A stretch of DNA of 64,000 bases. It comes from Catajapyx aquilonaris (lineage: Eukaryota). This document shows positions 1,329 through 29,966 of the stretch, piece by piece. The stretch's first letter is position 1; every line of letters begins with the position of its first letter. The notes beneath the pieces were generated by a model. That model saw nothing but the letters and a program-made list of their open reading frames with translations, made no database searches and was not told where the DNA came from. The stretch spans positions 1 through 64,000 of the forward strand of contig JYFJ02001216.1 in assembly GCA_000934665.2 (NCBI GenBank). Direction: 5' to 3'. The position numbers and the translations under genes are program-made.

Positions 1329-2898
1329 ATGGGGTCTTTCACTGCTCTTCTGTTGGCCTGCGTCGCTGTCGGTAAGTCTTTTAAAATAATACTCTAGCCC
1401 ATTGCCACATGGCACAGTGCTATGAAAGGACACGTGCTTGTTTTCTTGAAGTCGCAGCGTCCCCTCTTCAAGGCCTGGACGACTCCTTTCTCCAGGAGCA
1501 TGGACACATGGTCATCTCCACGCAGGTGACGGAGAAGGACGACAACTTCCAATTCGTTGAACACGCTGGTGAGTTGACCTCCTAATGCCCTCGACCTCGT
1601 CTGAGATCCGACTTTGTCTTATTCAGATCTGGTCAGTACCATCGGATTCTGCGTCCGTAACTTCGAGAAGACCGGAGTCAGCGAGGCAGGACAATGCATC
1701 TCCAACAGCTTCAAGGGAAGGAAGGTCACTCTTCAGCTCCTCAAGACATTCCTCAAGCAGGTGAGACAATTCGACTAATTGGTCAACAGGCCTTTGACTT
1801 GTTTGCCGTGATTCCTAGACAGCTGAGAAGGCTAATGGCGACCTCGATGTTGACGTTGTTGTCAGCGACGATGTCGACGTCAAGTCTGTCTCCAAGGGAC
1901 TGACCTGGACAGGTGCTGGAACCGTCACTGTCAACGGTCAGGAAGTGTCGTACAACAGGACCGGACTTTTAAACTTCGGTGAACGTCGGGTGACTTTCGA
2001 AGAAGTGGTCCAGGCTCATAGCGTCACCGTCAACGGGGACAGTGTCGACTCTGGTGCAGCCACGTACTTGGACGTCGACATCAGCATATTCAAGAAGGAA
2101 ACATACACTCAGATGGGGACTGCCATCAGCCTCCACCACGGTGCAGGTGTTTCCATCACTGCTGATGACGGTTCCGTTACTGAAGCCACCAGAAGCGGAC
2201 AGGTGACGATCAACGGCAATACCATCGTCAAGAAGGAGGCCAGCAACCTTAATATTGACAGTGCTGGGATGGGTGCCGGTACCGAGATCAGCCACTACCA
2301 CAAGACCAACTCCAACGGTAGCGAGACCCACGTGTCTGCCTCCAAGTCTGATGCTGTCGACGCTTGGGGAAATATCAATATCGCATTTAGTAGTTCGGAC
2401 ATCCAGGTTAGTCCAATTTCATATCCATCGTGTTCCGTCGTGATTCAAAGACGCTCTGCATGATTTGATGCATTTCAGATCGATGCTATCCAAATGATTG
2501 GATTCGGCCAGCACATTTACGTGGGCAAACCTGCCGTTCGTCAGTACAGCACCGGTTCCATCATGAGGACCGGGGCCATATCGGGCGGCAACCAGAAATT
2601 CACTATCACTTCCAAGGGCCAGTTCATGGTCAGTGGAGTGGTCCTGGACTACGAGGACAAAGCTCTGGCCTCTTTCATTGGTGAAAGCGCATCCGACAAC
2701 AAGATCGTCACCCTCGAATCAGACACTTCCATGGACGCCACAGGAAGTGTCAATGGTACCGCCAATTTTGTGGTCACACCCGTCAAGGGAGACAAGAACA
2801 ACATCTGGGTCACAAGCAACATCACCTTCCACGTCTCTGGCAGCGGTAACATCAAACTACACGCTGACATCGAGGCTAAACTCCATGTACACAACTAA
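1329..2898 (+). CDS. Family A gene A1: secreted beta-strand-rich protein, 431 aa, 5 exons
   Basis: Exons 1329-1371, 1458-1568, 1627-1760, 1819-2406, 2479-2898; all GT-AG and frame-consistent (1296 nt). Signal peptide MGSFTALLLACVAVA; motifs LDDSFLQEH, LVSTIGFCVRN, TW, YNRTG, DYED; AATAAA near 2939. Confidence 0.88.
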
Positions 2899-3251
2899 TG
2901 GGAATCAGCCTGAAATATTCATATTTTCCTTACAACAAAATAAAAAACAATGAAATAAACAAAGGTTGATTATACGTAAACACGATTTCTCCCTCACACC
3001 TACTCAAAAGCCGTCGTAGTGATCAAAACTATTTAAACACAATCAAAGAACCATCATCTAAACACAACTATATTGCCCAACACAAGATATGCACTGTAGG
3101 GTTGCGATTACAACAATTAGTCAATAATATGCTGGCGTGGCAACTTGACCTATCTTATCAATATTAAGGTAAAGAGAAAAAAAACACACATACTGATTGA
3201 ACCTCACGCAGGAAGATAAACACATTTGGGATCAACTGGCCTGAGAACACA

Positions 3252-4825
3252 ATGCGGTCCTTCGCTGCTCTTCTGTTGGCCTGCGTCGCTGTCGGTATGC
3301 CTTCGTTAATGTTCAAGGACATTGTCACATCTCTTTGTTATCAAAATGACAAGTGCCTTTTTCTTGAAATTACAGCATCCGCGCTTCATGGCTTGGACGA
3401 CTCCTTTCTCCAGGAGCATGGACACATGGTCATCTCCACGCAGGTGACGGAGAAGGACGACAACTTCCAATTCGTTGAACACGCTGGTGAGTTGACCTCC
3501 TAATGCCCTCGTCGACCTTGTCTGAGATCCGACTTTGTCTGATTCAGATCTGGTCAGTACCATCGGATTCTGCGTCCGAAACTTTGAGAAGACAGGCATC
3601 ACCGAGGCTGGAAACTGCATCTCCAACAGCTTCCGGTCCAGGAAGGCCACTCTTCAGCTCCTGAAGACATTCCTCAAGCAGGTGAGACACTGAAGCATTT
3701 GTCTTAATCAGTGGGCTTTTATCGTGTGCGTCGTGATTCCCAGACCGCTCAGAAGGCTAATGGCGACCTGGATGTTGACATTGTCGTCAGTGACGATGGC
3801 AGCATCAAGGTTGGCTCTAATGGACTGACCTGGATTGCCTCTGGAACAGTCACTGTCAACGGGAAAGGTGTGGCCTACAACAGGACCGGACTTCTCAACA
3901 CCTCTGACAAGCGAGTGACTTTCGAGGAAGTGATCCAAATCTTAGGCGTCACCAGTAATGGGGACGACGTCAACGGTGGAGCAGCCATATACCTGGACGT
4001 CGACATCTACACGTTCAAGAAGGAAACATACACTCAGATAGGCACGAAGAGCAGCCTCCACCACGGTGCAGGTGTCTCCATCACTGGCGATGACGGCTCC
4101 GTCACCGAGGCCACCCGCAGTGGTCAGATGACCGTCAACGGCAATACCATCGTTCAGAATGACAACCAGACCGTAATCATCCAGAGCGCTGGGATGGCCG
4201 CCGGTACCGAGATCGGCCACTACCACAAGACCAACTCCGACGGTAGCGAGACCCACGTGTCTGCCTCCATGTCTGATGCCGTCGACACTCGCGGTAGTGT
4301 CGAAATTGACTTCGGTACCGATGAAATCGAGGTCAGCATTGAGTACAGTGCGGCTGATTTGGTAGGTTCATTATTGACAACTTATTTCAGATCGAGGCTG
4401 TCCAGATGATCGGATTCGGCCATCACATCTACGTGGGCAAACCCGCCGTCCGCCAGTACGGTACCGCATCTGTCCGAAAGACAGGCAGCGTATCCGGCGA
4501 CAAGAAGAAATTCACCATCTCGTCTCAGGACACGTTCATGGTGGACGGAGCCGTCTTGGACTACGAGGACAACGCTCTGGGGTCTTTCTTTGGTGAAGGA
4601 GAGGTGGACAACGAGGTCGTCACCGTCGGATCAGACGCATCTGAAGACGTCGTCGGAAACATAAACGGCACAGCCAATTTTGTGGTCACCCCCGTCAAGG
4701 GAGACAAGGTCAAAATCAGCGTCACAAGCAGCATTACCTCTCACGTTAGCGGAACCAACGACGGCAGCGGTAACATCAAGGGACACGCCGACATAGAGGC
4801 AGAGATAAAGGTCCACACCGAATAA
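3252..4825 (+). CDS. Family A gene A2: secreted beta-rich protein, closest paralog of A1, 5 exons
   Basis: Signal peptide MRSFAALLLACVAVA and the same intron positions as A1. ORFs 3711-4409 and 4406-4825 cover exons 4 and 5. Ends GHADIEAEIKVHTE. Confidence 0.88.
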
Positions 4826-5246
4826 GCAGCGTGAAGTATGTGCAACACACCGTCATTACGCTCAAAAATAATATTGTTAAAAGAATGTACGACAGTTGAA
4901 AATAAATCACACAAACTATAGCCATGAGAAATAATGACTGTTTTGTTTTCCTGTGAACATCGTCGTGTCTATTCCTCATTACCATTTTCAAAACGACTTT
5001 GAATGATTAGTTGTGCAATTGTCACATGGCAGTGGACAATGACACCGTTGAGCCCTTATTGATTGCGATTGCGGTGACCATTAAGTACACCTGTACTCCT
5101 GTAATAATACCTGTAATAATATGTGTGATAATAATCCAGCTTTGCAAATATCTTCCGCCTTATCTGAGAGATACAAGAACTGATTGAACAGCAAGCAGCG
5201 TGGCAGACTGACAGTTACAAAGTCGTAGGCCTAGCCTGTGGACAAA

Positions 5247-6853
5247 ATGAAGTTGTTGGCGGCCCTTCTGTTAGCTTGCGTTGCTGTTGGTAGGTGTGCT
5301 CAGTAGTTTCTGTCCATTTTTCGCATAATAATTAAAACCGAATTTCTCTCTGTGCAAAGTGGCAGCTTCTTCTCTGCAGGACCTGGACGACTCATTCCTG
5401 CAGGAACATGGCTCCAGATTTTTGTTAGAAGAAGCAAGTAGCGAAGACGAGGACTTCCAGTATACAGACTATGTCTGTGAGTGACTTCATGATGTGCTTC
5501 ACAAAAGGTCCCAACTAACATGTTCAATTCAACAGTTCTGGTCAGCGTCATGGAATTCTGCACGCGTCACTTGGAACGCGGTGACGCCAATGACGTCCTC
5601 GGATGCATGGGATACAGCCTGAGTGACCGAAAAACCACTCCAACGATGGTGCACAGCCTCATGAAGAAGGTACTGTACACTCTCATGTCATCAGAATCAC
5701 CAATGAGCAGCATCACAGGCCACTGGTGATGGTTAATAATGTTGTACAGTCTCTGAAAGGTGGGAATGACTACTTCATGGAAGTGGACATCACCGACGAT
5801 GCCAGAGTCACTCATGAGGCTGGGAAGGGCCTGAGATGGACCTCCACTGGTACCGTCAACCTCAACGGAACGACAATACCCTACACCAGAAGCGGACTTG
5901 CTGTACTCTCACATCAGAAGGTCACAATCGAGGAGTCGACACAGGTCAGGGAGGAGTTGATTAAGGCGGATGCATACCTGTACATGGATTTCGACATCTA
6001 CCAACTTGATGGTACGCAAATGATGTCCATCACCAACCTGCACCATCGTACAGTCGTCGCCGCCAATGCCAGCGACGGCACCTCTTCTCAAATCAGCAAC
6101 CGTGGTCAGGTCGTGGTCAGGATCATGGGAACAGTCGAGAAGGAATCGGACGGAGACATCAAGATGTACAGCAACTATACTGTCAGCAGTACCGAAATTG
6201 ACCGTGTTCGCACGACCACTTTTGATGATTCAGTGTGGACCCACGTAGACACCAGGTCTGAAGGCCTGGACGGTGACTGGTATGTCAACATCAGCTTCAG
6301 CAGTCCATCCGATGTCAAGGTTAGGCAATTTGATCCGGATCCAAAAGCAGTTGATTCAATCCATTGTTTTTTCCAGATTTCTGGCCATATGACCAATTTC
6401 GGCGGAGCCAGATTTTATTACGAGAATGGCGAGCCGTCGTTACGTCGCGGTGCCAACGGATTGGTAGACAAATCTGTTGTCATTTCTGGCACCAGAGACA
6501 AATTTAGAGTCACCAGTCACCACACAATGACATCGATGGGGTTCTCCGGCGGAACCTTACAGGGCAAGTTACAAGGCGTTCATATGGACTCGACGAACTC
6601 CACCCGATGCGTCGACACACAAATGGACGTCCTAGTTGGATCAGACAAGTCCGTCGACGTCAAGAGCAACACCAAGACCAGCAGGCAGATCACGATAAGT
6701 GACGTCCCTCCTAATGGACACACGGTAAACATCATCATCGACGACGACGTCAGTTCGCACGTCACCGTCAAGGATAACGGCGACAGTACCTTCACCGTGC
6801 ACTGCGACATGTCCGACAAGACGCACGTCCACACTGATGAATCTATGATATAA
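5247..6853 (+). CDS. Family A gene A3: secreted beta-rich protein, 5 exons
   Basis: MKLLAALLLACVAV; LDDSFLQEH; LVSVMEFCTRH..C. The 375-aa ORF 5726-6853 includes a 57-nt in-frame intron at 6320-6376, at the family-conserved position. Confidence 0.85.
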
Positions 6854-7264
6854 ACCATGTGTAGCAGGCAATAACAACTATATAGTTTACTTACTGGAAA
6901 TAAAACAATATGATAAACTCAGCTAGTGTTGTTTTAAGCAACATTTCCTTACAACCAAGTCTCCATTGTCCTTTTGACAACCACTCACTTATTTTTCGAA
7001 TACCATACCGATTTGCCATAAAGAAATTATTGCTCTCGGTAAAGTACCGTAATTACATAAAATGTTCAATCGGTCTAAAATGAATTTGTTGAAATTGAAT
7101 CAGTTTCTTCGTTAAATGACTTGCACTGTTTTTAAAGGTGATTTGGACATGTTGCCTAATCCTGCAGGTTGTGTTGCAACGATGGGACGCCTGTGATTGC
7201 CTTATCAACATTACGAAGGTACGCGTAGTGCCGACAGTGCGTCTGTCTAATCACATGAGAAAAC

Positions 7265-8867
7265 ATGAAGGTCTTGATCACATTACTTCTCCTCGCTGTT
7301 TCTAGTACCAACAGCAACAGCTCGAAAGATGAAACAGGTTCACACAAGGTGTACGAAGCCTCCTTGCAACAGCATCGAGTACACAGTCTGCTGTTTACTC
7401 CCGTGAACCAGAGGGATGGCAGTGACCAGTTCATTGACTATTCTGGTACGTGTTGTAGTCAAAATTAATATGCACATTAATTTTGAGATGACCTTTTTCT
7501 CAAGAGATATGGCCAGCACCATCGGCTTCTGCTTGCGAAATTATGAAGAGACGGGGATCACCGACGCTGCCATGTGCATGGGTAACACATGGAAAGACAG
7601 AAAGGTTGCTCCAGCTATGCTCCAAACTATATTCAGAAAGGTACTGCACATAATCTCAACGTACGGTATATCATTTCTTGCCATGCTTTATATATTTTTA
7701 ACAAGTTGGATGGTCTTACGAGTGAGGTGACTTATATATTTTTGGTTCACATGTCGTGCAGGCTTTCAGACAGGTCAAGGATGACGAATATCTCGGATGC
7801 GACATCAGCGACGATGCCACGATCCAGACCATGCCGGAAAATACCATAACGTGGAAGGCCACTGGTACAATCACTTGGTTGAACGGTACAGCCACGCCGT
7901 ACACCAGAACTGGATTGCTCAGTGTCTCTCTGACGAGAATAACCTTTGATGACGTGGCGCAGATTGACCAGAAAGGCCTTCAAGCACAGGCCGCAATCTA
8001 CGTCGACATCGACATATCCAGAAAGGTGAAGGACAACCTAGTGAAAATGATGGCCGCCGTCAATGGACACCACGCCACGAGACTCGCCCACACTGACCAC
8101 CATGGCTCATACCACGAGACCGGTCACAACGGACAGGTCGTCATCAATGTGGCCACAACAGCAGAGATATTTGACAGCGATGTCAAAGTGAACACCTTGG
8201 CCACAACCACTGCAAGCCAAATTGCGTATGTGAACGACTACTCTGCCGATGGTACCGTTAAGTCCCATACCACCCATGGACAGTCACATGCAGTCGATAT
8301 GGACGAGACGCTGGGGATTGACATCGGGTCTTCTCCTGGCAAGGTGTGTCTTCTTATAGGGTGGTACGGCCGCCAATACGGACTTGAAATATATTATTCT
8401 CATGTTCGCAGATTCTAGGCACACAATACCTTGTCGGTGCTGTTAGTTACTTCGTGGACGGAACTACCGGTTCCCCGCCCCGTGAGAACTACTGTGGAGA
8501 AATCACCAAAAATGTGACCCTTTTCGGAACCGCGGATGAACCTCTCAACATCATGAGCCGAGCAGATTCGGTGTATGCCAGCACATTCCGGGACGAAGAA
8601 GACCTGTTGGTGGCCACCACCACAGGTACTGGTGTCATCCAAGTACAACTGGACGTCGTTGTCGGACCAGGCAAGACAGAGACCGTCAAAGGAAATGGCA
8701 CCAGCAGCTTGCAAGTCGTCCTCTCTCCTGCGAATCGGGGACCAAAAACGATCTTTGACATTCACGACACTCTCACTGCTCAACTGAAGATTAAGGACAA
8801 CGGCGGCGATACCAGTACCGCACACTCTGACGTCAGTGTCACGGAACACATTCACGTCAACCATTAA
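7265..8867 (+). CDS. Family A gene A4: divergent member, 4 exons (no intron 1)
   Basis: MKVLITLLLLAVSS reads through to FIDYS G|gt. Next come DMASTIGFCLRN..C, a TW/YTRTG exon (ORF 7756-8418) and a last exon ending AHSDVSVTEHIHVNH. Confidence 0.82.
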
Positions 8868-9272
8868 TAAATATATACATCTAGTTAAAAAAAAAACTTG
8901 CAGATTTTCATTACCCAAAGCACCTTTCTGTAACGATGGCTACTCACCGAGCTCAGTATATTATAAATCCGAGTTTCTTTTCGAAAAATCATCAGTTTTC
9001 ATTGTTGACAACAATGCTATGACAATTATTCTGGTTACAATCGAGATTCTAAGATATACTGAGCTCGGTGAAACCGGCCCTAAATGGAGCTGACTGATTA
9101 CATTTTTATGGCAGAATTTTCATGTTAAATTTTTAATAGAAAATAAGAGCGACAGCGGCGGAGATCATCTTTGCACAATGATTGCCGGTATGATTAGCTT
9201 TATCAATTGCCCGATACATTTGAAATGAAATACGTGGCGGTGACCTACTCATTGCCTGTCTGATACAACAAA

Positions 9273-10785
9273 ATGATGAGATCCGTCGCTTTATTCCTGC
9301 TTGTTGGCCTGGTGGCTGGTAAGGTTGTCGCTTGATACTTTTAAAGAAATCATATAAATAACGTTTGATGTTACTTCCAGGCTCGTCATTGGACGACACC
9401 TTTCTCCAGGAGCACGGTCACAGGTTCCTCTCCAGCCAGGTGTATCAGAAGGGAGACGACTTCCAGGTGGTCGACTACGCAGGTGAGTGACTGTATACGA
9501 TGTTCCTTCGACCCCTTATTTTTGAACCTCCTTCTGGACAGAACTGGTCCGCACCATCGGCTTCTGCGTGCGAAACTTTCATGAGACTGGCATAAGCGAT
9601 GCCTCCTTTTGCCTGGGAAAAATCTGGATGGAAAAGAAGGCCACCATTCAGCTGCTTAAACAGGTTAGTGTTACTTCAGTTAGCAGTGTGGCACTAGTTA
9701 TTCACACTTCTTATTCAGAGTCTGAAGGATGGCACCACTATCACGGTCGACATCAGCGACGATGCAAGGCTCAAGGTGGAGGCATGGAAGGGGCTGTCGT
9801 GGGAGTCGAATGGAACAGTCGCCATCGACGGAGCTTCGGTGCCATTTACCAGGCAAGGTATGCTCAGATTCAACACCAAAAGAATCACCTTGGAGGAGAT
9901 GGCCCAGATCGACGGAGCGGATGCTGCCCTGTACCTCGACATTGATCTCCTGATCAAAAATATTGACGATCAGTTGTCCATCGCTTCTGATGTCAGCCTC
10001 CATTACGGATCTAGTTCGGAGACGAAGCTGGAAGATGGATCGGTCGTGGAGAACACCCGGAATGGGCAGGTCAACCTGGAGACCTGGACTCGGGTCATCA
10101 AGGGCAATGGAACCTGGACTGTGGCCACCCAAGGGATGCTGGCTGCCACCAGACTGGCCAAAATGGAAATTATCGACGCTGATGGGAAGCCCTCAGGTCT
10201 TGCAGTGGCCACTCAGTCCGACGCCCTCGATGCTCAGGAGGACTTGAAGCTCGACTTCAGCTCTTCTGGCATCAAGGTGAGGATTTACTTGAATGGTTGT
10301 CCGATATGTCGATGTTATAAATAATATTCTATGTTCAGGTCACTGGTGAACTAGACTTGAGCTATGCCTCGCACTTGTACTCGATCAATCCAACAACCCG
10401 AAATAGTGGTACCGGATACATCGTCAGGAGTTTGGACATTAGCCTAGGTCTAGGCAAGTTCAACGTGGACGCCCACGACGCAGTGGAACTTCACACAGAG
10501 GTGTCCGACTACGACGATAACCTGCAAATGACTGTCCAGACCCAAGGAGAATTGGACGCCCAGTTGGGGGTGGACTTCGGGTCGGACAAGCCCGTCGATG
10601 TCACCAGTACATCAAAGGGCAGCTTCAAGAACGTCAACACTTGGGTCCAAGGAGACGTGGTCACCGTCACCGTCGACAATACCGAAAATGGTCATGTCAC
10701 TGCGATGGTCAATGGCGACGGCACGGGTACCGGACATGCTGACGTCCACATCGTGATCACAGTGGACACCGCTGCAACAAAATAA
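9273..10785 (+). CDS. Family A gene A5, 5 exons
   Basis: MMRSVALFLLVGLVA; LDDTFLQEH; ELVRTIGFCVRN..C; SW/FTRQG; DYDD; ends GHADVHIVITVDTAATK, followed by AATAAA. Confidence 0.85.
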
Positions 10786-12835
10786 AATTCAACGACAGAA
10801 AATAAAATCTGCAGTTCATGCTGACAACCAAACCTTTTCATGTCATTTTTAAACGTTTTAAACAGGTCACCAATGTCCAATATAGTTAAAAACAATCATG
10901 AATGCTTTTAATGATGATGGTGTAAGCTTCAGCTCAGAGTAAAAGTCACGATCATTATTGTTAAAAAAAACCAATGCCATAAAGTGTGCACCTACAATAG
11001 CAGAGTAAATAGCAATAGCATTACTCACAGTTAGTACAGAGCTACAGATATATTCATCACGTATGATCGCCTTTTATTAGAAAATGCAATGGAGCAATAA
11101 ATTAATGCAGAATGTGTGTTATAACTTGCAAAATAATCGGTATAGCCGAGAAATTGCGGTATTATTGCCCTACAACTATAGACCTACAGCTTTACCTCTT
11201 TAAACAATGATTAGGCGAAAATATTCCTGTACAAAGTCAATATTTTACTACATGTTCGATAAGCTTGATTACGGTTAGTTCCAGGAGTTGGAAGGACTGG
11301 TGTCAGCACCAGTCAGAAAGAGGCACGAGTCTGTTGACAATGAGTCTTTCTTATCTGTCGCAGAGATACTGGTAGCCTGCGCAAAAAGTACTACAGCTGA
11401 AGATAGCAAACAGTGTTATCCTAATCAAACAATGGGGGCAAAAAACACGCAATTTTTTTTTGAGAATGAGAAGAAAACTTGGCATCGTCGCATCCACTCA
11501 TAGTGCAATGTTATCAAGTGGAGGATTTTAAATCACACACACGCAAAAAATTACGCCACATGATATTACATCACATGGTCAAGTGGGTCTTTCCTATACG
11601 TAATAAAGTTAATGTCGTATAATTGCTCCGATAAATATTTTATATATATTATTTTCCAAGCAAAGCTTGATATACCGTATATTATTATGCTCTAGGTATT
11701 TCCAAGAGACTTGAGGAGCAGATGCAAATATGTAAAATTATGGATAAATGGTTAGTATAATATAATTATATGAATATTCAAGTGTTAATATAATGTTGCT
11801 TACCAAAGTGTTAGCTGTCGGTCCAATTAACCGGGGTGAAAAATCTCGATTAGTTGTAAAATGATATGTTGAGCTAAAGCGGCCATAAATTTCTTACAAA
11901 ATATTATACGTCATTGATAATAATTTTGCTCAGTTCCACATAACCAAATGTCCATCGCGAGGAATGTGTTATGTAACTTTGTGCTGCATTAAAAAGTGAG
12001 AGTAATTATTAAATTTTCACTTCTCCCAACAATGCAATATTTTGTAATTCAAATTACTATTTTTTCATCTCATATGAAACTTTTCAATCCGGGAATTTTT
12101 TCGACATGCAGCCCTTAATAGCTAGGAGATTTATTATAATAATACTGAATATCCTCCCTCACTTTTACATGGAACCTATTAACTGGCAGTTAAGTTTGAC
12201 CACATATTTTACCGAACATTTCTTTTCAAGTCCGCATGGCGGCTGAAATTATTTTTACCTGCACTTGATATCCGCGTCATTTACCTAACCATAGTAAGGT
12301 CAGAGTTCATTGAGCCCTAAATTTGAACACCAACAAACCGGATTCTCCATATCGGCTATAATATTTATTCTCAGTCATATATTATTTGCCTGGGAAAAAC
12401 CTGATTGCAATCAAAGCCTGCACCTGAGTACACATTGCCTCAACTGCAGCAAAAAATTGCATGCTCTGTGTAACACGAGGGGCCTCGAGAGGTCACGTAA
12501 CCATCCCCCTATGAGTGGACACCGATAAAAAAATTTGACAAGTGTCACCATCCACTTGACAGAGAGCGAGATACGCTGGAAGGCAGTCGAAGGACGCTTC
12601 TGAAGTGGTGGTAAAGTCCGCCGGTATCTCACTAGCCCCGATTTATTTCAAGAGTGTTTGCTATTTCACACATCATCATTTCCTCTGATTGCGAGTCATA
12701 CGTTTCGTAATGTACCGGCCAGGACTGGACGATGAGAGAGCAAAAAAAGTGCAGATCTGTAGATAAGAAATGAAATAAAAGTCGGTGCCGTCCGTCAGCA
12801 CTTCGGAGTTTTGATACGTGCCTGATCTCTCCACC

Positions 12836-14456: not shown

Positions 14457-14870
14457 ACATAGGACTTTCAAGAACCAGCACGGTGTGATAACAGCCAACA
14501 TCCTGTCCATCAAAGCTCTCACAATTACAATGATGCAATAATAAAAATCAGACACAAGCTTTACGAATAATTATCTCTTGTCGCATTTTCAACAATCCTT
14601 TCCTCGCTCTCCAAGCAGCGCAATAATTCCGATTCTGACGTCAAGCAATGGTCGCCACAAATATTGAGAAATAAATAAGGGGACTTGACACAAAAGTGAT
14701 TGTGGAAAAAAACTCAACATTCAGCCTCGTTTCATTAATATACAATATATTGTAATTGATCGAAGAATATGCCATTTCATACGTCACGAATACAGCCTAC
14801 GACACGTTCATTGCCTCAAAAGCTGCCTGCCACATCTACAGTTAGAATTAAAATCGCATAAAAAATTAAC

Positions 14871-15450
14871 TGTAGACCTTCCTCTGGCCTGAACATCACA
14901 CTGTACTTCGATTTTGTGGAGGACGGCACCATATGATGCGAAGGACAAGACTGGATCTTCGATAGGAATGCTTCGTACGCCGGAGAAATATTATTATGTA
15001 ACGTGCTGAAACACCCTTCCAAATGTCATCGGAGGCAACCTTCGAATCCCTCGCACCGATGTCCGTTATTCCTCCAAGGGGTCAGCCAGGTCATCAGCCA
15101 GCCTGACCCTTGCCCACGGAAAGATGTCCGTCGCAGGTCACAACGAGCTGGAAATGAAGACTGACCTGAGAGATTACCAGGACACCTTGCTGCTCGTCAC
15201 AGTGACTAAAGCCGAGTCTGACAACCAAGTTTGCTTGACCGTCAAGGGTGATGCCCATAAGTCCGCTGACCTGGAGGTCAAGGTCAACTTCAGCGGAAAG
15301 ACTGCGGCCATCCCAGAGAACGGATCTGGAACAGTCACCGTCGCCAATAAGGGCACCTTCACAGGCACAGTCACGGCCAAAGACAACGGGGACAACACAG
15401 CCCAAGGTCACACCGAACAATACCTCAAAGTCAACATACAGCAATACTAA
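14871..15450 (+). pseudogene. Family A pseudogene A7 (truncated duplicate of A9)
   Basis: Matches 27025-28113 but lacks exons 1-3. It has TGA at 14934-14936 (AGA in A9), a ~490-nt deletion in exon 4 and smaller deletions. Confidence 0.9.
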
Positions 15451-15523
15451 AGTACAATTTTGAGCAATAAAATGTGACATACAGCAATTGAATATTGCGC
15501 ACTAATTTATCTAAACAGCGCAT

Positions 15524-15728
15524 TCCAATCCGCAGTTTTTCGCGCTAACCTGATTATTTTTAATCAGTTACTTTGTAGATAAAAATTAGCAACTTATGTT
15601 AGAAAGTTACACATAACTGATCGTCAACTTTCATCGTCATCATTACGATGTTTCTGGACTATTTGACACATAATTGTGTTCCTATTTAAGCAACAGATTA
15701 CACGTGTAAATAGGACTGGGCGGTTGGC
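15524..15728. mobile_element. Small insertion, possibly an old MITE, absent from the paralogous A9 3' flank
   Basis: The A9 flank reads acagcgcat-cactttg uninterrupted. Here ~205 nt lie between imperfect 8-bp repeats CAGCGCAT and TAGCGTAT, with weak inverted ends. Confidence 0.4.
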
Positions 15729-16777: not shown

Positions 16778-18820
16778 CTAAAACACAGGCCAACACTGGC
16801 TCAACACACCTGATGTCAAGAGTTCGGCAAAGAAACCCACGAGACTCATGCCCCAAGAAAAAACAAAGAGGAAATAGAGAGCACCGCTCAGCTGACTAAA
16901 GTTGAGGGCCATCGACCTTAGGTACAATAGGTCCTTCTTTCGAGCATCTCTTATTCCCATGGTCAGGCAGGCATACTCGAAGGCTCTCCGGAACTTCTCG
17001 TGTACACCGGACTCTCTGACGTACTTGAGCATCCGGCTCATGATCGGGAATATCAGGCTGTGCTTCTCGGTCAGGATAGAACCGGTCACAATTACGTCTC
17101 TTTCCTGTGCAAATTTTGTGGGCAGATTACCCGCCTTGTCCGCAAACTGATAACAACCGGCCACCAGGATGTCGTAAGTGACAATGCAGCAGTGGTCGGA
17201 GTTGATGGCCTCGAGAACACACATGTTGAGGTCCACATGATCCGTCATTTCCCTGGCAGCAGATGCGAAGTACTCCAGTCCCAGGAGAGCACTGTGGGCG
17301 TAAGGTTTGAAGAATCCTATCGTCCCCCAACTCCACCTGGGCCAATCCTGGTGCTCCCTGTATGTCTCCGGGAGTTCCTCCATCAAGGGAGAGGTCAGGA
17401 AGCCGAAGTAGAGGGCCTCGTACCCACAGATGATGACCAGGGATAAGGCCCACCAGAAGGAGATGAATATTCGGGGTAGTTGGGTGGAGGGGACCAGGTT
17501 CGGGTTCTCTTCGATCAGGGTGGAGGAGAGGTACCTCAGGGAGTACAGGAGGAGGCGGGGGAAGGACCAGGGGCGGCCAGGGAAGGGGGGGAGGGGACTC
17601 CACTTCAAGAGGAGGGCGAGGACTGCGCTGCCTAAGACTACGGAGACCATCACCATCGCCCACATGTCCGGAGTGTACGGTCGGAGCATCGCGTTCCAGG
17701 TGTAGCTCACTCGAGGGGCCCTGGTTACGAACGTGATGGTGGCAAACGCATGGGGAAAACTAATGTCGACCACCAGGGACATGCGATCTTTATTCAATGT
17801 TATTCCGAACACTGCTTTTCTTCGGAGGATGACTCCTGTTGCTCCGGTGTAGTTTCCGTCTGGCAGAGGAACATCCGGTATCACCCCGTCTTCCCCCTCG
17901 GGGGATTCCAAGACCCAGTCGTAATTCATGGCCTGGCTGATGGGCAGGAGGTCCATCATCTCTGGGAACATGGGCAAGTTGTTTTCAAAGAAATACTGAA
18001 GCTCGTTTTTGCTCAGGTCCAACAAGAATGATCCGTTGAGAAATCGGTTGTGCAGATTCCGGGAATAGTCCGGGAAGATATCCAGTCCGGACGGAGTCAC
18101 TTGTCCTCTTCCGGGGTCGAACCATCCCCTCGTGACCACCCCGGGATGACCCCCCTTGCAAAAGTGGCAGTTGGAGAGCAGCCCGACCATCCCTGGATGA
18201 CCTCCCTGGACCCCAGAGGAGGTGTCCACCCCCGCCAGGAAGAGGAACCTCTCCGTGACCCCGTGCAGCATGACCTCCTCCAGCCCCCTCCCTCCCCCCT
18301 CGCTGACCCACACAACGAACTTGTCCCTTCCCGTCTGGATGGAGACCAGTCTGGCCACCTGCTCCACCAGTGACCTCGGGTCATGGTGGTGGTCGGATGA
18401 TGATGGTGACCCGAAGAGCAAGAGCAGGTACACCGCGCACTTGTGCTCCACCGCACCAGGTCTGTGCAACCAAGAGAACCAGTACTCGAACTGACCTGAG
18501 TTGACCTGGTGTGACCCCCTCTTCTGCCGGGTCACGGTGGTGGTGGTGACGGGCAGCACTGGGGTCACCCCCACCCGGTGTATCCTCCTGATGAACCCGG
18601 ATAGTTCAGGCCCGTTGAACCTTCTTCCTTGGTCCGTGGCAGGCACCAAAAGGCAAGAAGGGTACATCCGGCTGACCAAATGGACAAACTCAGTCACTCG
18701 AAACAACTCACTGTCCTCTGGTGATCTAAGGTCAAGGGTGACCTTCCCCTCTCCACCCTTCCCCACTACCAGCGCCCACAAGACGAGCAGCATGAGGACT
18801 GGCAACGAATATGACTCCAT
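16778..18820 (-). CDS. Divergent ionotropic receptor (IR, variant iGluR chemoreceptor), 680 aa, intronless
   Basis: Signal peptide; S1 region GNYTGATGVILRRKAVFGI...VDISFPH...TFVTRAP; pre-M1/M1 LRPYTPDMW; RIFISFWW...GYEALYFGFLT (equivalent of SYTANLAAFLT); S2 ...ESGV; last TM LNFSQLSGALYFL...FFAEL. Confidence 0.9.
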   Translation of the reverse strand: MESYSLPVLMLLVLWALVVGKGGEGKVTLDLRSPEDSELFRVTEFVHLVSRMYPSCLLVPATDQGRRFNGPELSGFIRRIHRVGVTPVLPVTTTTVTRQKRGSHQVNSGQFEYWFSWLHRPGAVEHKCAVYLLLLFGSPSSSDHHHDPRSLVEQVARLVSIQTGRDKFVVWVSEGGGRGLEEVMLHGVTERFLFLAGVDTSSGVQGGHPGMVGLLSNCHFCKGGHPGVVTRGWFDPGRGQVTPSGLDIFPDYSRNLHNRFLNGSFLLDLSKNELQYFFENNLPMFPEMMDLLPISQAMNYDWVLESPEGEDGVIPDVPLPDGNYTGATGVILRRKAVFGITLNKDRMSLVVDISFPHAFATITFVTRAPRVSYTWNAMLRPYTPDMWAMVMVSVVLGSAVLALLLKWSPLPPFPGRPWSFPRLLLYSLRYLSSTLIEENPNLVPSTQLPRIFISFWWALSLVIICGYEALYFGFLTSPLMEELPETYREHQDWPRWSWGTIGFFKPYAHSALLGLEYFASAAREMTDHVDLNMCVLEAINSDHCCIVTYDILVAGCYQFADKAGNLPTKFAQERDVIVTGSILTEKHSLIFPIMSRMLKYVRESGVHEKFRRAFEYACLTMGIRDARKKDLLYLRSMALNFSQLSGALYFLFVFSWGMSLVGFFAELLTSGVLSQCWPVF

Positions 18821-22357: not shown

Positions 22358-22845
22358 CAAATCCTATATTGTTATAGCCAGGAAAATAGCCTTGTTTGGG
22401 CGTTTATGAACCGGAGACAGTTTGTCCAAAATTCATGATTTTTTTAAAAAATGGGGTCCGTCCCGCTGTAAGACCAGACCAGGCCATGTAAATCTCAGAC
22501 CTCCAGCCTTACTGACCCAGTCCCGAGTTACAAGGGGCTCGTGTGTAGAGTAACGAGGGGGTTAGTGTAAAGGAAGGGGCAGTGCGGGTGGGTGGGAGGA
22601 GACTTGGTAGTGGTAAAGTCCGCCGGTATCTCACCAGCCCCGATTTATTTCAAGAGTGTTTGCTATTTCACACATCATCATTTCCTCTGATTGCGAGTCA
22701 CACGGTTCGTAATGTACCCGCCAGGACTGGAACGATGAGAGAGCAATAAAAAAGTGCAGATCTGTAGACAAGAAATGAAATAAAAGTCGGTGCCGTCCGT
22801 CAGCACTTCGGAGTTTTGATACGTGCCTGATCTGTCCACGTAACC

Positions 22846-24482
22846 ATGAAATACTTCGCAGTCCTTCTCCTTGTCGGCCTTGCCGTCGGTACGTCCCCCG
22901 TTAACAAAACAAAAGTCACGACCATGCTCATGTACCTGTTTCTAATTGACCCACAGCCACCACTGAGGTCACCGATGACTTCCTGAACGAGCATGCCGGC
23001 AAGTTCCTGACAGTGAAGCGAACCACCTCCGACAAGGATGACGCCTACGTGAACCTCGATGCCGTCGGTACGCCTTTATTGCACGAATTATGGTCAGTAC
23101 CCGTATAAACCCACGTTCTGCTTTTAAATTTCCAGAGCTGGTCCGAAGCCTTGGCTTCTGCTCCCGCAACCACAAGATGGTCGGCTTGGACACCATCGGA
23201 CCATGCCTGACCAGCTACTTCAAGCACAGCCAGGCAGCACCCAGGATGATGCAGAGCTTGCTGAAGAAGGTACACGATTTGCACATATTTTTATGAGGAT
23301 CAGTTGCGCTGAATCCAATATTGGGGCTATTTCAGCAACTTGGCGTTGGAAAGGATGTCGAAGTCAAGGTTGACATCGTCGATGACAGCAGCGTGACCAG
23401 GGACGGACAGACCATCAGCTGGAATGCCAGGGGAACCATCGTCGTGAACGGCCAGACTGTCCCTTACCACAGGACGGGACAGGTTCATTTCGGTAAGGGA
23501 AGCGTCACCGCCATCGAGGATATCTCCTCCAAAGGTGGCAACTACCAGTTCTCAGCCGCCGCCAACGTTCATGTAAGTATTCGCCTGGATTATACTATAG
23601 GATGTTAACTATGCCGACGACACCTGCAGGTTGACTTCAACGCAGTCAAGGACCAGTCTGGCAACGAGACCGTCGAGGTCGTCGTCAGCGGCAACAACGA
23701 GGCTGGCTTGAGCATCACGACCTCAGACGGCTCCAACTTCCTCGCCGAGTATCTTGGACAGCTGACCATACACGCTCACTCTGGAGCCGCCGAGAAGGAC
23801 TACGTCGTCTCCGTCGCAACCGAGGCCGCCGTGTCCTCCGCCAACGGATACTCAGTCCACACCAAGAAGTCCGATGGAACCATCACCCACGTCCACTCTT
23901 CCTCTTCCGCGGGACTCGATGTCATTGAGCACGTCAGCGTCACTCAGTCCAACCGGTATAACCCCGTCGTCTATGTAAGTCCTGTCAATGACGTTAACTG
24001 GCTGGTATGTACGATAATTGTTGTGTGATTATTTAAAGGTGGAAGCTGGTGCCTCGTTCGCTGGCCGTGGTGCCCACATCTCCGACAAGCCCGACTACCG
24101 CTCCGCCACCCAGGGTGGTGCCACGTCCAGCGTCAAGATCACCCCAGCAACAGTTTGCAAGTACTCCATCGCCGGTCACGATACGGTTGGCAGCAGGACT
24201 GTGCTTAGCGACTACCAGGACAACGTGCTCGCCACCGTCAACGCCGGAGTCGCTAGCGACGACACCTTCAACATCGCCGTCGACCTGAAAGCCAAGACCC
24301 TGAACGTGGAGAGCAGCAGCAAGTTCGACGGCGCGGTCGGGGTCACCCCAGCCTCCGGATCCGCCGTCAACGTCAACTACGATGGCACCCTCACCGGAAG
24401 CCTCTCCGTCAAGCTCGACAGCGCCACCTCCGGAAGCGGACACGCCGAGCAGCACCTTGACGTCACTCTCCACACTGCCTAA
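22846..24482 (+). CDS. Family A gene A8 (recent duplicate of A6), 6 exons
   Basis: Signal peptide MKYFAVLLLVGLAVA and intron positions identical to A6. All exons are open; ends GHAEQHLDVTLHTA. Confidence 0.9.
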
Positions 24483-24629
24483 ACATAGGACTTTACACGA
24501 ACCAGCACGGTGTGATAACAGCCAACATCCTGTCCATCAAAGCTCTCACAATTACAATGATGCAATAATAAAAATCAGACACAAGCTTTACGAATAACCA
24601 CTTTTTGTCGCATTTTCAACAATCCTCTC

Positions 24630-24634
<5 letters not shown>

Positions 24635-24671
<37 letters not shown>

Positions 24672-24695
24672 NCACACACACACACACACACACAC
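24635..24695. repeat. Compound microsatellite (CT)n-N-(CA)n
   Basis: Seen directly; ambiguous base at 24672. Confidence 0.95.
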
Positions 24696-25376
24696 TCCAA
24701 GAAGAGTAATAATACCGACAACGTGATATTGACGTCAAACAATATATTGTCGCAACCAATATTGAGAAAATAATGAGGGTACTTGACACAAAAATTATTG
24801 TCGGAAAAAACTCAATATTCAGCCTCGTTTCATTAATATACAATATATTGGAATTGATCGAAGAATATGCCATTTCATACGTCACGAATACAGCTTACGA
24901 CACGTTCATTGCCTCAAAAGATGCCTGCCCCATCTACAGTTAGAATTAAAATCGCATAAAAATGAACTGGACAATGTAGCTTACGTGTTAGGATATTTTG
25001 TACCTTGTAGATGTGAAGCGAAAGATAACAAATGGCGCTTCCATACATAAAGGTGTCTATTCTTGTTTGTACATAATCTACCACCCATTCCAAAGGAACA
25101 AGTTTGTAGATACCACGATATTTCCCTCGTCCCTATCACACTTCGCAGTAAACATAATAGAAAAAAATCCTCTCACGCACTTTCCAGATACATAAGCACT
25201 GTTTCAAGCTAAGGCATAGATTTCGTCAACAATGCTATCCATTCTCTCCATTCTTCCATGTCAACAAATGGGGCCTAATATCACTGGGCCAGATACTTCT
25301 GTTGGACGCGCATTGTCTCGTACTGCTTGTATAAATAAGTGGCCTGTCCGTCTCGACAACAGCAAATTGCTCCAGC

Positions 25377-25931: not shown

Positions 25932-26571
25932 CGTTTTAAATAAAATAATTGTACATTATACGTACTCAACTTCGTTTGTTATTGCATTAGTATAATGCAA
26001 CGGACACCTAAGAAGGGATACACATTGCACCATGCAGTAATATACTGCATGCAAAGTGTCAATGTTTCAAGTTTGACAATGGTTTAGGCCCACGGGGGGG
26101 TTGCACAGCCCCAATTAATCTTCAATAATTACACACAATTGCTTATGTGAAATTAAATGTGACGCACCTGAGGAGTAAAATTATTCACATGTTTTCAGAA
26201 GGAAAATCACACGGTTCAAGTGATAGCATATTGAAGTTCATGTATGTTTTATTATTAAGTGTTTCTTTCAGAGTGTGCCAACAATGCTTTCTCATAAAAT
26301 TAATTAGTCAGAATGAGCGATTTCATTCAGCTTTTCAGTTGCATTACAATGCAGAAATTTTAAATCATTGCCATTATTTTAATGCCAATAAATGATTCCC
26401 CCCTTTTTTGGCTGATACTGTGCTGTAAGGGTGTATTTCACAATCTGACAAACACTGTCACTACCCTATGATAACGTAATATTATTGATAAGACAAGGTG
26501 CGAAATGGAGTGATCCGTCAGCCACTTATTGGTTTGCTTGACATGTGCGTCGATTCTATCGAGCCGCAACA

Positions 26572-28113
26572 ATGGAGTTATTGCTAGTCCTTCTCTTCGT
26601 GGCCCTTGCTGCTGGTATGCTAGTAATTTTCTTCTGGTTAGCAATGTTACCAAGTCCCTTTTAATCCTCAGCTTCACCGATTCAGTCCGTCATAAACGAT
26701 GACATATTGAACGAGCATGCACACAACTTCATGTCCGTCAGACGCACCGTCATCGACAAGAACGACGCCTTCGACAATCTCGACGCCCTCGGTATGTCTC
26801 GCAAATTACGTTTGCAACAAACTCACTGTAAATGGTTGCAGAGCTGGTTCGCAGCTTGGCGTTTTGCTCGCGAAATGGCGTCGAGAGAGTCGGTCCTTGC
26901 ATGGCTGTCAACTTTCGCGAAGGCAAGGCTGCACCCAGGATGATGAACCGCTTCGTTCAGAAGGTGGCCATACCACAATTATTATGCAATCTTCATACAC
27001 TAATTTATTAAAGCATGCAATTATTGTAGACCTTGAATAGCTCTGGCCTGAACATCACACTGTACTTCGATTTTGTGGAGGACGGCACCATAAGATGCGA
27101 AGGACAAGACTACACCTGGATCTTCGATGGGAATGCTTCGTACGCCGGAACCTCCCTTCCATACCAACGAAAAGGTAGCTTTCACGGGGTCTCAGGAAGC
27201 TGGACATTTTCTGAAGGAATCACATCCTCCGGTGACCACTACCAGGCCGACATGTCTTATTCGGTGCACGTGGATTTGGGACTGCCAAAGGACAATAACC
27301 CTGTTCATGGAGATGTAATAATATCGGTGAGCCTGTACGGCAGGTTGACATTCCAGTCAGATGACGGATCCATCACAGACTCTGAACGCATCGGTCAGGG
27401 CACGGCATACCTCAAGATTAAGAGCATTCAGACGGGCAGCCTGGTCACCTTCACCGTTCCAACCACGGCGTCGTCCACCGTCGAGGACGTCGTCACCATC
27501 CAATCTGCAGACGGATCAATCATCAGGACATTTGGAGACTCCACGACCTACGGAGGTGACATCCTGGAAGTGCTTAACGTCACTCTCACCCATGACGGAC
27601 TCGTACATGTACGACACAAATGTACTCACTTTCCCGGAGCAATTATGTAACGTGCTGTAATTCCAGGTGTCATCGGAGGCAACCTTCGAATCCCTCGCAG
27701 CCCACATGGCCGACCAGCCCGATGTCCGTTATTCCTCCAAGGGGTCAGCCAGGTCTGCAGCCAGCCTGACTCTTGCCCCCGGAAAGATGTCCGTCGCAGG
27801 TCACAACGAGCTGGAAATGAAGACTGACCTGAGTGATTACCAGGACACCTTGCTGCTCGTCACAGTGACTAAAGCCGAGTCTGACAACCAAGTTTGCTTG
27901 ACCGTCGAGGGTGATGCCGATAAGTCCGCTGACCTGGAGGTCAAGGTCAACTTCAGCGGAAAGACTGTGGCCATCCCGGAGAACGGATCTGGAACAGTCA
28001 CCGTCGCCAATAACGGCACCTTCACAGGCACAGTCACGGCCAAAGACAACGGTGACAACACAGCCCAAGGACACACTGAACAACACCTCAAAGTCAACAT
28101 ACAGCAATACTAA
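26572..28113 (+). CDS. Family A gene A9, 5 exons
   Basis: MELLLVLLFVALAA; NDDILNEH; ELVRSLAFCSRN..C; TW/YQRKG; SDYQD; ends GHTEQHLKVNIQQY, followed by AATAAA. Confidence 0.87.
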
Positions 28114-28343
28114 AGCGGTGCAATTTTGAGCAATAAAATGTGACATACAGCAATTGAATATTGCGCACTAATTTATCTAAACAGCGCATCACTTTGTATT
28201 ATTTTTCATCCTGGAATATACGCAACCCACAAGCCCATACAGTAAGTCATGTATTTTCAAGGTGATATTGGACACGTATAAATGAAGATAAGAATGAAGA
28301 TAAAAGTTTGTCGGATGATCCATTTTGATTAATTCACTCAGCC

Positions 28344-29966
28344 ATGAAGTTGTTAGCAGTCCTTCTATTGTCCTGCTTCTCAATAGGTGATTATTATTAT
28401 TATTAATAATAAAAAATAATTAATTAATTAATTTTTTGATTTTATTTCCCGAGCTTCCCCGCTGCTGTCACTAAATGACGACATACTGAACGATCATGCT
28501 CACAACTTCTTGTCGTTCCGGAGTAAGCATACGGTCAACGAGGTCTTTGACAACATAGAAGCCACAGGTAAGTTGCATAAACTGTGTTTACGATTCTTGC
28601 AATGAAAGCCATGTTCGATTGTTGCAGAACTGGTTCGCAGCTTGACGTTTTGCTCTCGAAATAATGTGGATACCATCGGACCATGCATGGCCACCAACTT
28701 CAGGGAAGGCAAGGCTGCACCCAGGATGATGAACCGATTCGTTCAGAAAGTGCGACACATCAATGCCGTACTTGATACACATCACTATAAACGCATTCAT
28801 ATATTTCAGGCTTTGAAGAAAGTTGGTCAGAACATAACAGTACAGATCGACCTTTCGGAGGACGGCACCATTAAGCCATACCACGGGCCAGACGGAGACG
28901 GCCATACCTGGACCTTCCGAGGTACCGCTTCGTGCGATGGACAAACAGTGTCATACCTGAGAGAAGGCAGTTTTATCAACTACTTAGGCAGCCAATTCCT
29001 GGAGAAAATAAGTTCATCCGGCGACGACTATCGAGCCAACACTTCTTACGCGGTACATGTAAGTACTACATATAGTACACAGCGTACACATTCAGGAGTT
29101 AAAATGCAATCCGATAAACCAGGTGGGCTGCGGATCGGTTCCAAACACGACAGTTGTTTCGTTCGAGTGCATGGTCAGTGTGAACATGTACGCAGTCCTG
29201 CGCACCAGGAACGTCGACGCAGACTACGTCGGACTGGCCATACTTTACGCGAAGATTCGTGGAGTCAATGATGGACACACGGCGCACATGACGACTCCAA
29301 CTACTGTGTCGTACACTGCCGAAGACACAGTCACCATCAGTGAATCAGACGGGTCCGTGAAGCATTTTGGTGAATCCGTGTCTGAAGGATCAAACATTGA
29401 GGCTGAATTGAATGTCACGCAGACGGAGAGTTTAGTACAGGTAATATAAAGGCCAAATATTAATTTAGATATTTTAATTTTGCATATGAATGAGCCTATT
29501 GCCATATATTTTTCGGAATAATTTGTAGATATCAACTTCCGGAGACATCACAGCACTTGCCACTCACTTTTCTGACCATCCCGACTACCGCTATGATTCG
29601 AGTGGGTCAGTATGGTCAACAGCCAGCGTGACCCTCGACAACGGAAAGGTCATGGTCACGGGCCAAGAAGCAACTTACCTGAGAGAGACTATCAGCGACT
29701 ACGAAGGCAACCTTCTGGCCACTGTCCAGTCCGACACTGAGTCTGTCGCCACCATTGACGTGGTCACCGACAACAGATCTACCGACCTCAAAGGCAGTGG
29801 TCATTTCAGCTCTAGCGTCAAGGCCACGTGCAAGGACGGTCAAGCTGTTTCCGACAGTGAGGACCAAGGCACCTTCACAGGCACCGTCACGCTTACAAAC
29901 AACGACGACGGAACCATGTCAGGACACTCTGAGCTGCATCTCACAGTGAATGTCCACAAAGAATGA
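28344..29966 (+). CDS. Family A gene A10, 6 exons
   Basis: MKLLAVLLLSCFSI; NDDILNDH; ELVRSLTFCSRN..C; TW/YLREG; extra intron after AVH as in A6/A8; SDYEG; ends GHSELHLTVNVHKE. Confidence 0.85.

Follow-up and report, generated by a model that had tools for sequence, protein, structure and literature searches.

What kind of protein is encoded by a tandem array of nine intact genes and one pseudogene that we could assign to no characterised family, and what might it do outside the cell? The array in question lies in 64 kb of the genome of Catajapyx aquilonaris (assembly GCA_000934665.2, contig JYFJ02001216.1, positions 1-64,000, + strand), hereafter the window, in whose coordinates all positions are given. 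Our answer, to which we would attach a probability of roughly 0.4, is that the proteins may be lipid- or membrane-directed extracellular defence or digestive effectors acting against variable targets, be they microbes, parasites or food. We rank this tentative reading first because the aliphatic face of a large predicted beta-sheet would need cover, and because this feature is combined with signs of diversifying selection and of birth-and-death dynamics. In what follows, we set out the evidence on the genes, the proteins and their predicted fold, and then weigh the other readings that it would allow.

The window has a eukaryotic character, with short GT-AG introns. A tblastn search with its longest open reading frame (ORF), at 5627-6853, found related coding pieces at six further places on the + strand with E-values of 1e-8 to 1e-26, a kinship far above chance. 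Starting from a stop-to-stop ORF list together with tblastn, we built exon chains whose frames had to stay open, whose borders had to be GT/AG and whose phases had to agree with those of the first gene. The result is nine spliced ORFs, A1 to A9, which share the + strand; their introns are all GT..AG and measure 50-121 nt, and their proteins have 433, 436, 446, 450, 423, 433, 437, 436 and 427 aa, respectively (a family mass of ~45 kDa). They span 1329-29966, which is exactly the extent given by the original prediction, made earlier from this DNA: the ATG of A1 lies at 1329, and the stop codon of A9 at 29966. Its count of nine intact paralogs and one pseudogene is likewise borne out, the latter being a broken copy at 14871-15523 that is 89-96% identical to A8. 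When all members were run by tblastn against the 64-kb window, no further pieces appeared beyond these ten.

Are the genes transcribed? None of the sequencing runs listed is recorded as RNA, yet one from a second study, X5, whose kind is unrecorded, contained 0.56 of the sampled words, and its contigs were compared with positions 1200-15600 of the window. At the modelled junctions of A2, A3, A5 and A6, these contigs skip GT..AG intervals, within the cut offsets printed. Namely, the joints listed (15 of 19) include four of four in each of A2, A3 and A5 and three in A6, and all of them are GT..AG. The last intron of A6 is backed by loose ends at 13955 and 14013, whose letters are those of the adjoining exon, and a loose end of 25 A behind 14570, downstream of an AATAAA, gives the A6 poly-A end. 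None of these splice joints is present in X1, a DNA run from the other study. We therefore conclude that X5 is RNA-derived, that A2, A3, A5 and A6 are transcribed and spliced, and that the transcripts are polyadenylated. Spliced transcripts, on whose existence the original prediction had staked itself, are thus present for four genes. The X5 contig over A4 (word depth 11.5) lacks one G at 7821 relative to the window; this loss, if real, would bring a frameshift and an early stop, and it could represent a null allele of another individual or an error in the contig. As for depth, the contigs of A2, A3, A4 and A5 lie at 11.5-121, and the contig with the listed A6 joints (12744-14667) has a word depth of 4,398, with bin values up to 84,554. 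A6 may be very abundant, which we offer as a lead only, given that contig depth cannot rank genes. X5 contigs do not cover the pseudogene and most of the intergenic DNA, which we do not take as evidence.

Each of the nine proteins opens with M and one or two polar residues; a run of 10-13 hydrophobic residues comes next (ALLLACVAV and AVLLLVGLAV are examples), and then small residues. Read directly from the sequence, this looks like a cleavable signal peptide of the endoplasmic reticulum (ER) type, and we infer that the proteins are secreted and carry a single disulfide. The signal is followed by D..L.EH, an acidic stretch, LV..(I/L).FC.R and, 11-15 residues further on, a second Cys. We aligned ten sequences, namely the nine paralogs and P0001, a full-length, intron-free JGI/IMG sequence of 443 aa that comes from a 1435-nt contig and is 52% identical to A6. 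Sixteen columns of this alignment are invariant, among them the L and H of D..L.EH, F-C-x-R, the second C, the D of DD, the W of (T/S)W, the R and G of (Y/F)xRxG, the G of GQ, P..R and a C-terminal H. In particular, exactly two Cys columns are conserved in 10/10 sequences. The motifs listed in the original prediction (D..L.EH, FCxRN..C, (T/S)W and (Y/F)xRxG) are therefore real and contain invariant positions, as are its shared signal peptide, seen in nine of nine proteins, and its claim that only two Cys are conserved; DY(E/Q)D, which it had called a common anchor, is indeed common and not invariant, being absent from A3 and altered in A4. The remaining ~330 residues are rich in T, S, G, D and V and poor in Cys, with a net charge of -12 to -26 and 10-18 His. 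Pairwise identity is 20-37% between subgroups and reaches 45% for A8/A9, 74% for A1/A2 and 82% for A6/A7. The N-terminal module of ~85 residues is the best conserved part, with a mean column identity of 0.40 versus 0.27-0.33 for the beta classes.

What fold would such a sequence adopt? We gave AlphaFold2 an alignment of P0001 with the translated exons 4 and 5 of every paralog, and obtained a mean predicted local distance difference test score (pLDDT) of 76.3 and a predicted template modelling score (pTM) of 0.67, the five models ranging from 75.0 to 76.3 in pLDDT. Residues 117-442 of the model make up 16 antiparallel strands, 11-22 residues in length, which pair with their neighbours in a hairpin meander with tight turns, and the 10-residue blocks from 121 on have pLDDT values of 76-95, mostly ~90. 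In every one of the 16 strands, residues of one parity are hydrophobic on average and those of the other polar, and in many strands this in/out alternation runs uninterrupted for 12-17 residues. The 87 hydrophobic strand columns are chiefly aliphatic (V 30%, I 16%, L 13%, A 11%, F 7%; aromatic 10%), the polar columns are rich in T, S, G and D, giving an acidic, His-containing face, and the turns are made of D, G, S and N. No internal repeats were found in an hhalign self-comparison (best off-diagonal probability 1.3%). Residues 1-112 are unconfident in this model, whose alignment rows do not cover that part. In a separate run with alignment rows for the N-terminal part alone, the module is predicted as four helices (29-40, 49-75, 80-90 and 94-107) at moderate confidence, with block pLDDT of 67-82 over residues 51-90, and the two invariant Cys fall in the second and third helix; a further alignment, with rows spanning 155-443, is no real test of this part of the fold. 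The large antiparallel beta-meander with a helical part that the original prediction had proposed, with its alternating in/out residues broken by DG/NG turns, is thus what the modelling returns, the helical module with moderate confidence.

Whether the sheet closes on itself bears on the role of its aliphatic face. By root-mean-square deviation (rmsd), the fit of the model to barrels that we take to have 14-16 strands, with FhaC presumably at 16, is poor: 13.0 A for CymA, 11.8 A for FhaC, 12.1-12.8 A for CdiB, and 11.3-12.8 A over FhaC, CdiB and TamA. The best fit is to sixteen-strand arcs of what we take to be very large barrels, namely MtrB (4.5 A over 308 residues), the SlpA complex (5.2 A) and SprA (5.5 A). 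Because the rmsd is low for the very large barrels and high for those of 14-16 strands, the model suggests an open, gently curved sheet, and not a closed 16-strand barrel.

Does the family have relatives elsewhere? Pfam has no family at E<=10 for full-length P0001 or for any N-terminal exon, and with some of the large exons it returns chance-level rows alone (E 0.0088-0.28), all under the curated cut-offs, as NCBIfam returns sub-threshold rows alone. Among PDB sequences at E<=10, the beta-region profile finds nothing and the N-terminal profile one chance row (E 0.89). A HMMER search of 1.84 billion representatives, mostly microbial, with the A3 exon recovered a single protein, P0001, at E 4.5e-11. 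When a word-indexed protein collection was queried with the A3 exon and P0001, P0001 itself alone came back, a scan of metagenome contigs with P0001 and exon 6 of A6 gave no relative, and the ESM Atlas gave no usable match. The window has no match in Rfam, six peptide motifs of the family occur in none of the papers searched, and keyword searches for such a family gave unrelated papers. As a control, we searched the same word-indexed collection with a neighbouring protein resembling ionotropic glutamate receptors (iGluR), whose PDB matches are kainate/delta glutamate receptors of animals (E 6e-12), and found nothing at E<=1e-5. Since this neighbour is unmatched there despite its clear match in the PDB, the large protein collections that were searched are poor in animal proteins. 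In other words, the statement that the family has no relatives holds for Pfam, the PDB and the microbial and metagenomic space, and says little on animal proteins. The original prediction could place the family nowhere, and no characterised family was matched in Pfam, NCBIfam or the PDB sequences. Since it shares no known family's defining feature except a generic meander, we rate it as apparently new at the family level and lineage-restricted, within the Pfam, PDB and microbial/metagenomic space searched.

The history of the array is informative about what the proteins may do. In deep paralog pairs the synonymous divergence (dS) is saturated, at 1.1-1.7, and the ratio of nonsynonymous to synonymous divergence (dN/dS) is 0.41-0.59; A1 and A2 have a dS of 0.48 and a dN/dS of 0.36, their exons and introns being equally diverged. 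A6 and A7 depart from this picture. Over their 150-nt promoters, five introns and 3' untranslated region (UTR), 13/582 sites differ (2.2%; 1/114 in the 3'UTR), as compared with 99/1013 sites (9.8%) in the three beta exons, a 4.5-fold difference between beta exons and introns plus UTR (Fisher p 1.4e-9 against promoter, introns and 3'UTR; p 0.0017 against introns 4 and 5 alone, with 2/116). Expressed as identity of A7 to A6, the beta exons stand at 89-91%, the introns at 94-100% and the 3'UTR at 99%. With 90 nonsynonymous and 15 synonymous differences (Nd and Sd), the beta region has a dN of 0.128 and a dS of 0.063, a ratio of 2.0 (Fisher p 0.011), and in exons 1-3 dN is 0.014 and dS 0.015. Amino acids differ at 4/103 N-terminal positions, 9/59 turn positions, 19/87 hydrophobic strand columns and 47/183 polar strand columns. 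Polarised with P0001 and A8 as outgroups, 46 of 57 assignable changes fall on A7 and 11 on A6 (p 3e-6), with 23 unassignable.

Relaxed constraint on A7 cannot drive exons past the neutral divergence of the introns and UTR interleaved with them, and gene conversion would need tracts that coincide with each intron and with the UTR. Because neither explains the exon-intron contrast, positive selection on the A7 beta domain is the simplest reading, and a protein that changes faster than its introns points to a role in defence or attack. A keyword search of the literature on this exon-versus-intron signature gave nothing on the Catajapyx array family. As for how the copies arose, the DNA at 14771-14870, past the A6 poly-A site and just before the A8-like pseudogene, is again 96% identical to the DNA downstream of A7, and A6 with the pseudogene, on the one hand, and A7 with A8 further on, on the other, look like two products of one segmental duplication of an A7-A8-like pair. 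Taken together, the pseudogene, the possible A4 null allele and a young A7 under positive selection describe an array in birth-and-death turnover. The original prediction had called the expansion old and maintained; this stands for the deep pairs, with the addition that turnover of the array continues.

The promoters give a hint of where the proteins are made. In seven of the nine genes, GATAAG or CTTATC lies 57-98 nt upstream of the ATG, from which, and not from the transcription start, all distances are counted (background 0.58 per kb; binomial P 8e-7). It is found as CTTATC before A1 (1241-1246, 88 nt upstream), A2 (3154-3159), A3 (5159-5164) and A4 (7201-7206), as GATAAG before A6 (12762-12767) and A9 (28287-28292), and as TGATAAG before A8 (26486-26492); A5 has TTATCA at 9200-9205, 76 nt upstream. 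The A7 promoter (22700-22845) is 96.7% identical to that of A6 (12686-12835), with AGACAAG replacing the AGATAAG of A6, and the fast-evolving A7 may thus also have changed in regulation. GATA sites of this type mark gut, fat-body and haemocyte genes in invertebrates other than C. elegans. In that nematode, TGATAA sites are over-represented in intestine promoters (PMC10411582). Because of these sites upstream of the ATG, expression is probably in gut, hepatopancreas or a tissue of the fat-body type.

How might such an effector work? The protein would be secreted, with the large amphipathic sheet as its working surface. An aliphatic face of ~16 strands could hardly stay in water, and would have to be covered by the helical module together with a ligand, by a second copy, or by a membrane or lipid surface. 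In the case that we favour, this face would bind lipid or membrane, either closing around acyl chains with the help of the helical module, or lodging at the surface or in the interior of a foreign membrane. The helical module would be the constant part, serving as a lid, a docking unit or a folding unit, and the rest of the beta domain would be free to diversify. New copies would arise by segmental duplication and then be subject to positive selection, like A7, or be lost, like the pseudogene and possibly the A4 allele.

The original prediction had offered a carrier, a pore-former or a self-assembling secretion, and each of the three has a place in our ranking. Could the same sheet serve the animal's own lipids instead? 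An endogenous carrier or storage protein, which we rank second and consider unlikely, would enclose with its sheet and helical module a large apolar cavity for the animal's lipids, sterols, carotenoids or hormones, in the gut lumen, haemolymph or yolk, as a small monomeric analogue of lipoprotein beta-sheets. The dyad pattern of amphipathic strands with an aliphatic face would suit it, as would the conserved N-terminal module, which could act as a lid, and promoter sites of the GATA type, known from genes of the gut and fat body. In Foldseek, apoB100 (9coo_A, E 8.4e-5, TMq 0.18) and MTP (6i7s_H, E 1.1e-4, TMq 0.11) are matched locally, but at a very low template modelling (TM) score, and neither protein is among the top 50 VIA matches. 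There is no Pfam match to Vitellogenin_N or another lipid-transfer domain, and beta exons that evolve 4.5 times faster than introns and UTR, with a dN/dS of 2, would be unexpected in carriers of self ligands.

A less likely reading again, third in our ranking, is that of a structural or self-assembling secretion, in which protomers would assemble through the edges or the faces of their sheets. The product could be fibres, films or a matrix, for instance in an adhesive, an egg envelope, a gut lining or a surface-active layer. A Cys-poor beta protein rich in S, T, G, V and D is what one might expect of such a material, and its sheet edges would be open if the model is truly an arc. What is more, tandem arrays are common among structural secretions, and a second, mucin-like tandem family is found nearby, at 44-59 kb. 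That said, the domain is of defined length and lacks internal repeats (hhalign <=1.3%), its turns are conserved and 16 columns are invariant, and positive selection on amino-acid change is unexpected for a bulk material.

Harder still to credit, though consequential, is a specific form of membrane attack: a porin-like secreted animal protein, whose 16-strand arc would be kept soluble by the helical disulfide module until at least two arcs join edge to edge as a ~32-strand barrel in a foreign membrane. We regard this as a long shot; if true, it would define a new class of beta-barrel pore-forming effectors, unrelated to aerolysins, MACPF proteins and gasdermins, with a diversity kept by positive selection. 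Improbable, and last in our ranking, is the reading in which the meander has been mispredicted and the true fold of the beta region is a beta-solenoid or another repetitive binder, so that the protein would work by binding surfaces in the manner of a lectin, adhesin or enzyme and not by way of an amphipathic sheet, as the beta-helix-like model has low confidence (mean pLDDT 53; beta blocks 28-63) versus ~90 in the aligned model, the hhalign self-comparison has no repeat signal, and the in/out alternation exceeds the segments of solenoid rungs.

Several points weigh against the defence or digestive effector that we put first. To begin with, lipid or membrane binding is derived from two things, the amphipathicity and the predicted fold, and the latter depends on an alignment of ten related sequences: it was without paralog rows that AlphaFold2 gave the differing, beta-helix-like model. 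Should the sheet be closed or folded back, its aliphatic face may simply form the core, as in ordinary proteins, and there would be no lipid binding. On the evolutionary side, a dN/dS above 1 is seen for one pair and mainly in one lineage, the older pairs being at 0.36-0.59 with dS mostly saturated, and A1/A2 do not have the exon-intron contrast. The GATA sites would suit yolk or storage proteins of the fat body or gut just as well. Finally, the RNA comparison covers 1200-15600, outside which lie A7, A8 and A9, whose models come from homology and alignment.

Turning to the individual gene models, A1 (1329-2898; exons 1329-1371, 1452-1568, 1627-1760, 1819-2406 and 2479-2898) follows from splice sites and reading frame, with partial X5 contig cover and no joint among the 15 listed. 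The three genes with four of four introns skipped by X5 contigs are A2 (3252-4825; exons 3252-3294, 3376-3486, 3548-3681, 3744-4331 and 4391-4825), A3 (5247-6853; exons 5247-5289, 5360-5476, 5536-5669, 5750-6319 and 6377-6853) and A5 (9276-10785; exons 9276-9318, 9381-9482, 9542-9663, 9719-10276 and 10339-10785). For A4 (7265-8867; exons 7265-7445, 7507-7640, 7762-8343 and 8412-8867), the modelled large exon agrees, give or take 2 nt, with a piece of X5 contig that covers 7760-8341. A6 (12836-14456; exons 12836-12878, 12948-13058, 13127-13260, 13327-13563, 13621-13953 and 14013-14456) has its three listed joints and its poly-A end near 14570, and A7 (22846-24482; exons 22846-22888, 22957-23067, 23136-23269, 23336-23572, 23630-23974 and 24039-24482) is modelled by homology with it. 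In A8 (26572-28113; exons 26572-26614, 26672-26791, 26842-26963, 27030-27608 and 27667-28113), the donor of the last intron may be at 27602 or 27608. A9 (28344-29966; exons 28344-28386, 28454-28567, 28628-28749, 28810-29058, 29123-29440 and 29529-29966) is a model as well and the most aberrant member, with seven Cys; its acceptor at 29123 was picked on alignment grounds alone, and yields a 64-nt intron and removes a 9-aa insertion.

Intron positions, which the original prediction had described as common to the array, are mostly shared, with exceptions: A4 does not have intron 1, and A6, A7 and A9 have an extra phase-0 intron within the beta region. It had also read A3 as having no last intron, which is incorrect. 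Namely, a 57-nt intron (6320-6376) is present and is skipped by the RNA-type contigs, and A3 appears as one long ORF because this intron is in frame and stop-free. The pseudogene (14871-15523, + strand) is, by blastn, a truncated and internally deleted copy of A8. It retains ~110 nt from the beginning of exon 4, interrupted by an in-frame TGA, and then the tail of the last intron together with exon 5 and the 3'UTR; it has lost exons 1-3 and most of exon 4; its 14871-14984 is 88.8% identical to A8 27025-27149 (blastn), and its 14993-15523 is 91.9% identical to A8 27642-28189 with gaps (508/531 in an ungapped local alignment).

The array also has neighbours. Inside it, on the minus strand at 16781-18820, there is an intronless 680-aa gene with a signal-peptide-like start and a weak Pfam match to Lig_chan, which looks like a divergent ionotropic receptor; its product is the iGluR-like protein that served as the control above. 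Further downstream on the + strand, six exons at 44200, 49936, 52464, 53772, 57219 and 58697 contain C..DC(S/T/H)xW, and in four of these exons the motif precedes long mucin-like runs rich in T, S and P; these look like a second tandem family of secreted-looking genes. Between A4 and A5, the DNA run X1 reaches a word depth of 3042 at 8896-9376, as compared with ~28-45 elsewhere, with many loose ends at 8945-9085, which suggests a high-copy repeat. At ~24616-24894, where the two N bases of the window apparently lie, an ORF translates with X beside alternating E/R codons, which suggests a dinucleotide repeat of the GA type.

How do these proteins compare with known systems? In terms of evolutionary signature, the closest are the accelerated toxin families, such as snake three-finger toxins and PLA2. 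The genes of such families have the same duplication signature, with introns and UTRs conserved and the exons of the mature protein diverging, as in snake three-finger toxin genes, where introns are conserved beside divergent exons (PMC2474615). Here, however, the protein and its predicted fold are unrelated, and the signature comes from one young pair, A6/A7, in no known context of venom or delivery. In terms of a lipid-facing surface, the large lipid transfer proteins apoB100, MTP and vitellogenin have extended antiparallel amphipathic sheets, and the Foldseek local matches fall on the first two of them. They differ in that the matches are at TM 0.11-0.18 and no Pfam domain is shared, and in that the array protein is ten times smaller, has another N-terminal module and shows signs of positive selection.

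As regards mode of life, the proteins bring to mind the beta-pore-forming effectors of animals. Aerolysin-like proteins such as biomphalysins, lysenin, actinoporins and MACPF proteins are secreted, often tandemly expanded and fast-evolving, and use amphipathic hairpins to build a membrane barrel. Neither P0001 nor the large exons have a Pfam match to beta-pore-forming toxins (aerolysin/ETX-MTX2, lysenin, actinoporin, MACPF), and none of these is among the Foldseek or VIA matches listed, where absence from the listing does not amount to exclusion. What is more, in known beta-pore formers each protomer changes conformation and then supplies one or two hairpins, whereas an array protein would bring 16 ready-made strands.

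With respect to architecture, lastly, the comparison is with beta-barrels of the outer-membrane type, including MtrB, TonB-dependent transporters, FhaC/TamA/CdiB, CymA, porins and Sam50/Toc75, with which the array proteins share a predicted antiparallel next-neighbour meander of amphipathic strands. There is no sequence kinship in Pfam, NCBIfam, the PDB sequences or the 1.84 billion representatives. Unlike the barrels, the array genes are spliced, nuclear and animal, with an ER-type signal peptide and a helical N-terminal module that would bear a disulfide, and aromatic residues make up only 10% of the hydrophobic face. The beta-signal at the C-terminus of outer-membrane barrels ends in an aromatic residue; the array proteins end in HVHN, VHTE, DESMI, HVNH, AATK, VHTA, LHTA, IQQY and VHKE, an aromatic end being present in one of nine. 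Horizontal transfer of a bacterial barrel gene was considered and rejected, as the genes contain introns and the search of 1.84 billion proteins, microbial for the most part, turned up no bacterial relative. The signal peptide, the introns and the animal iGluR-like neighbour argue for the animal secretory pathway as opposed to BAM/SAM insertion. If the prediction holds, we are dealing with a eukaryotic secreted protein whose main domain would resemble a piece of an outer-membrane barrel with no relation in sequence, an architecture that, to our knowledge, is not listed among the known carriers, toxins and matrix proteins of animals. It is transcribed, it sits in a birth-and-death array, and its youngest copy, A7, has one of the plainest local marks of positive selection; on these grounds it would be well suited to work on a candidate new effector of host defence or feeding, and on the birth and expansion of a family at the level of fold, and a natural, water-soluble amphipathic sheet of 16 predicted strands would be of interest for membrane-protein and nanopore engineering.

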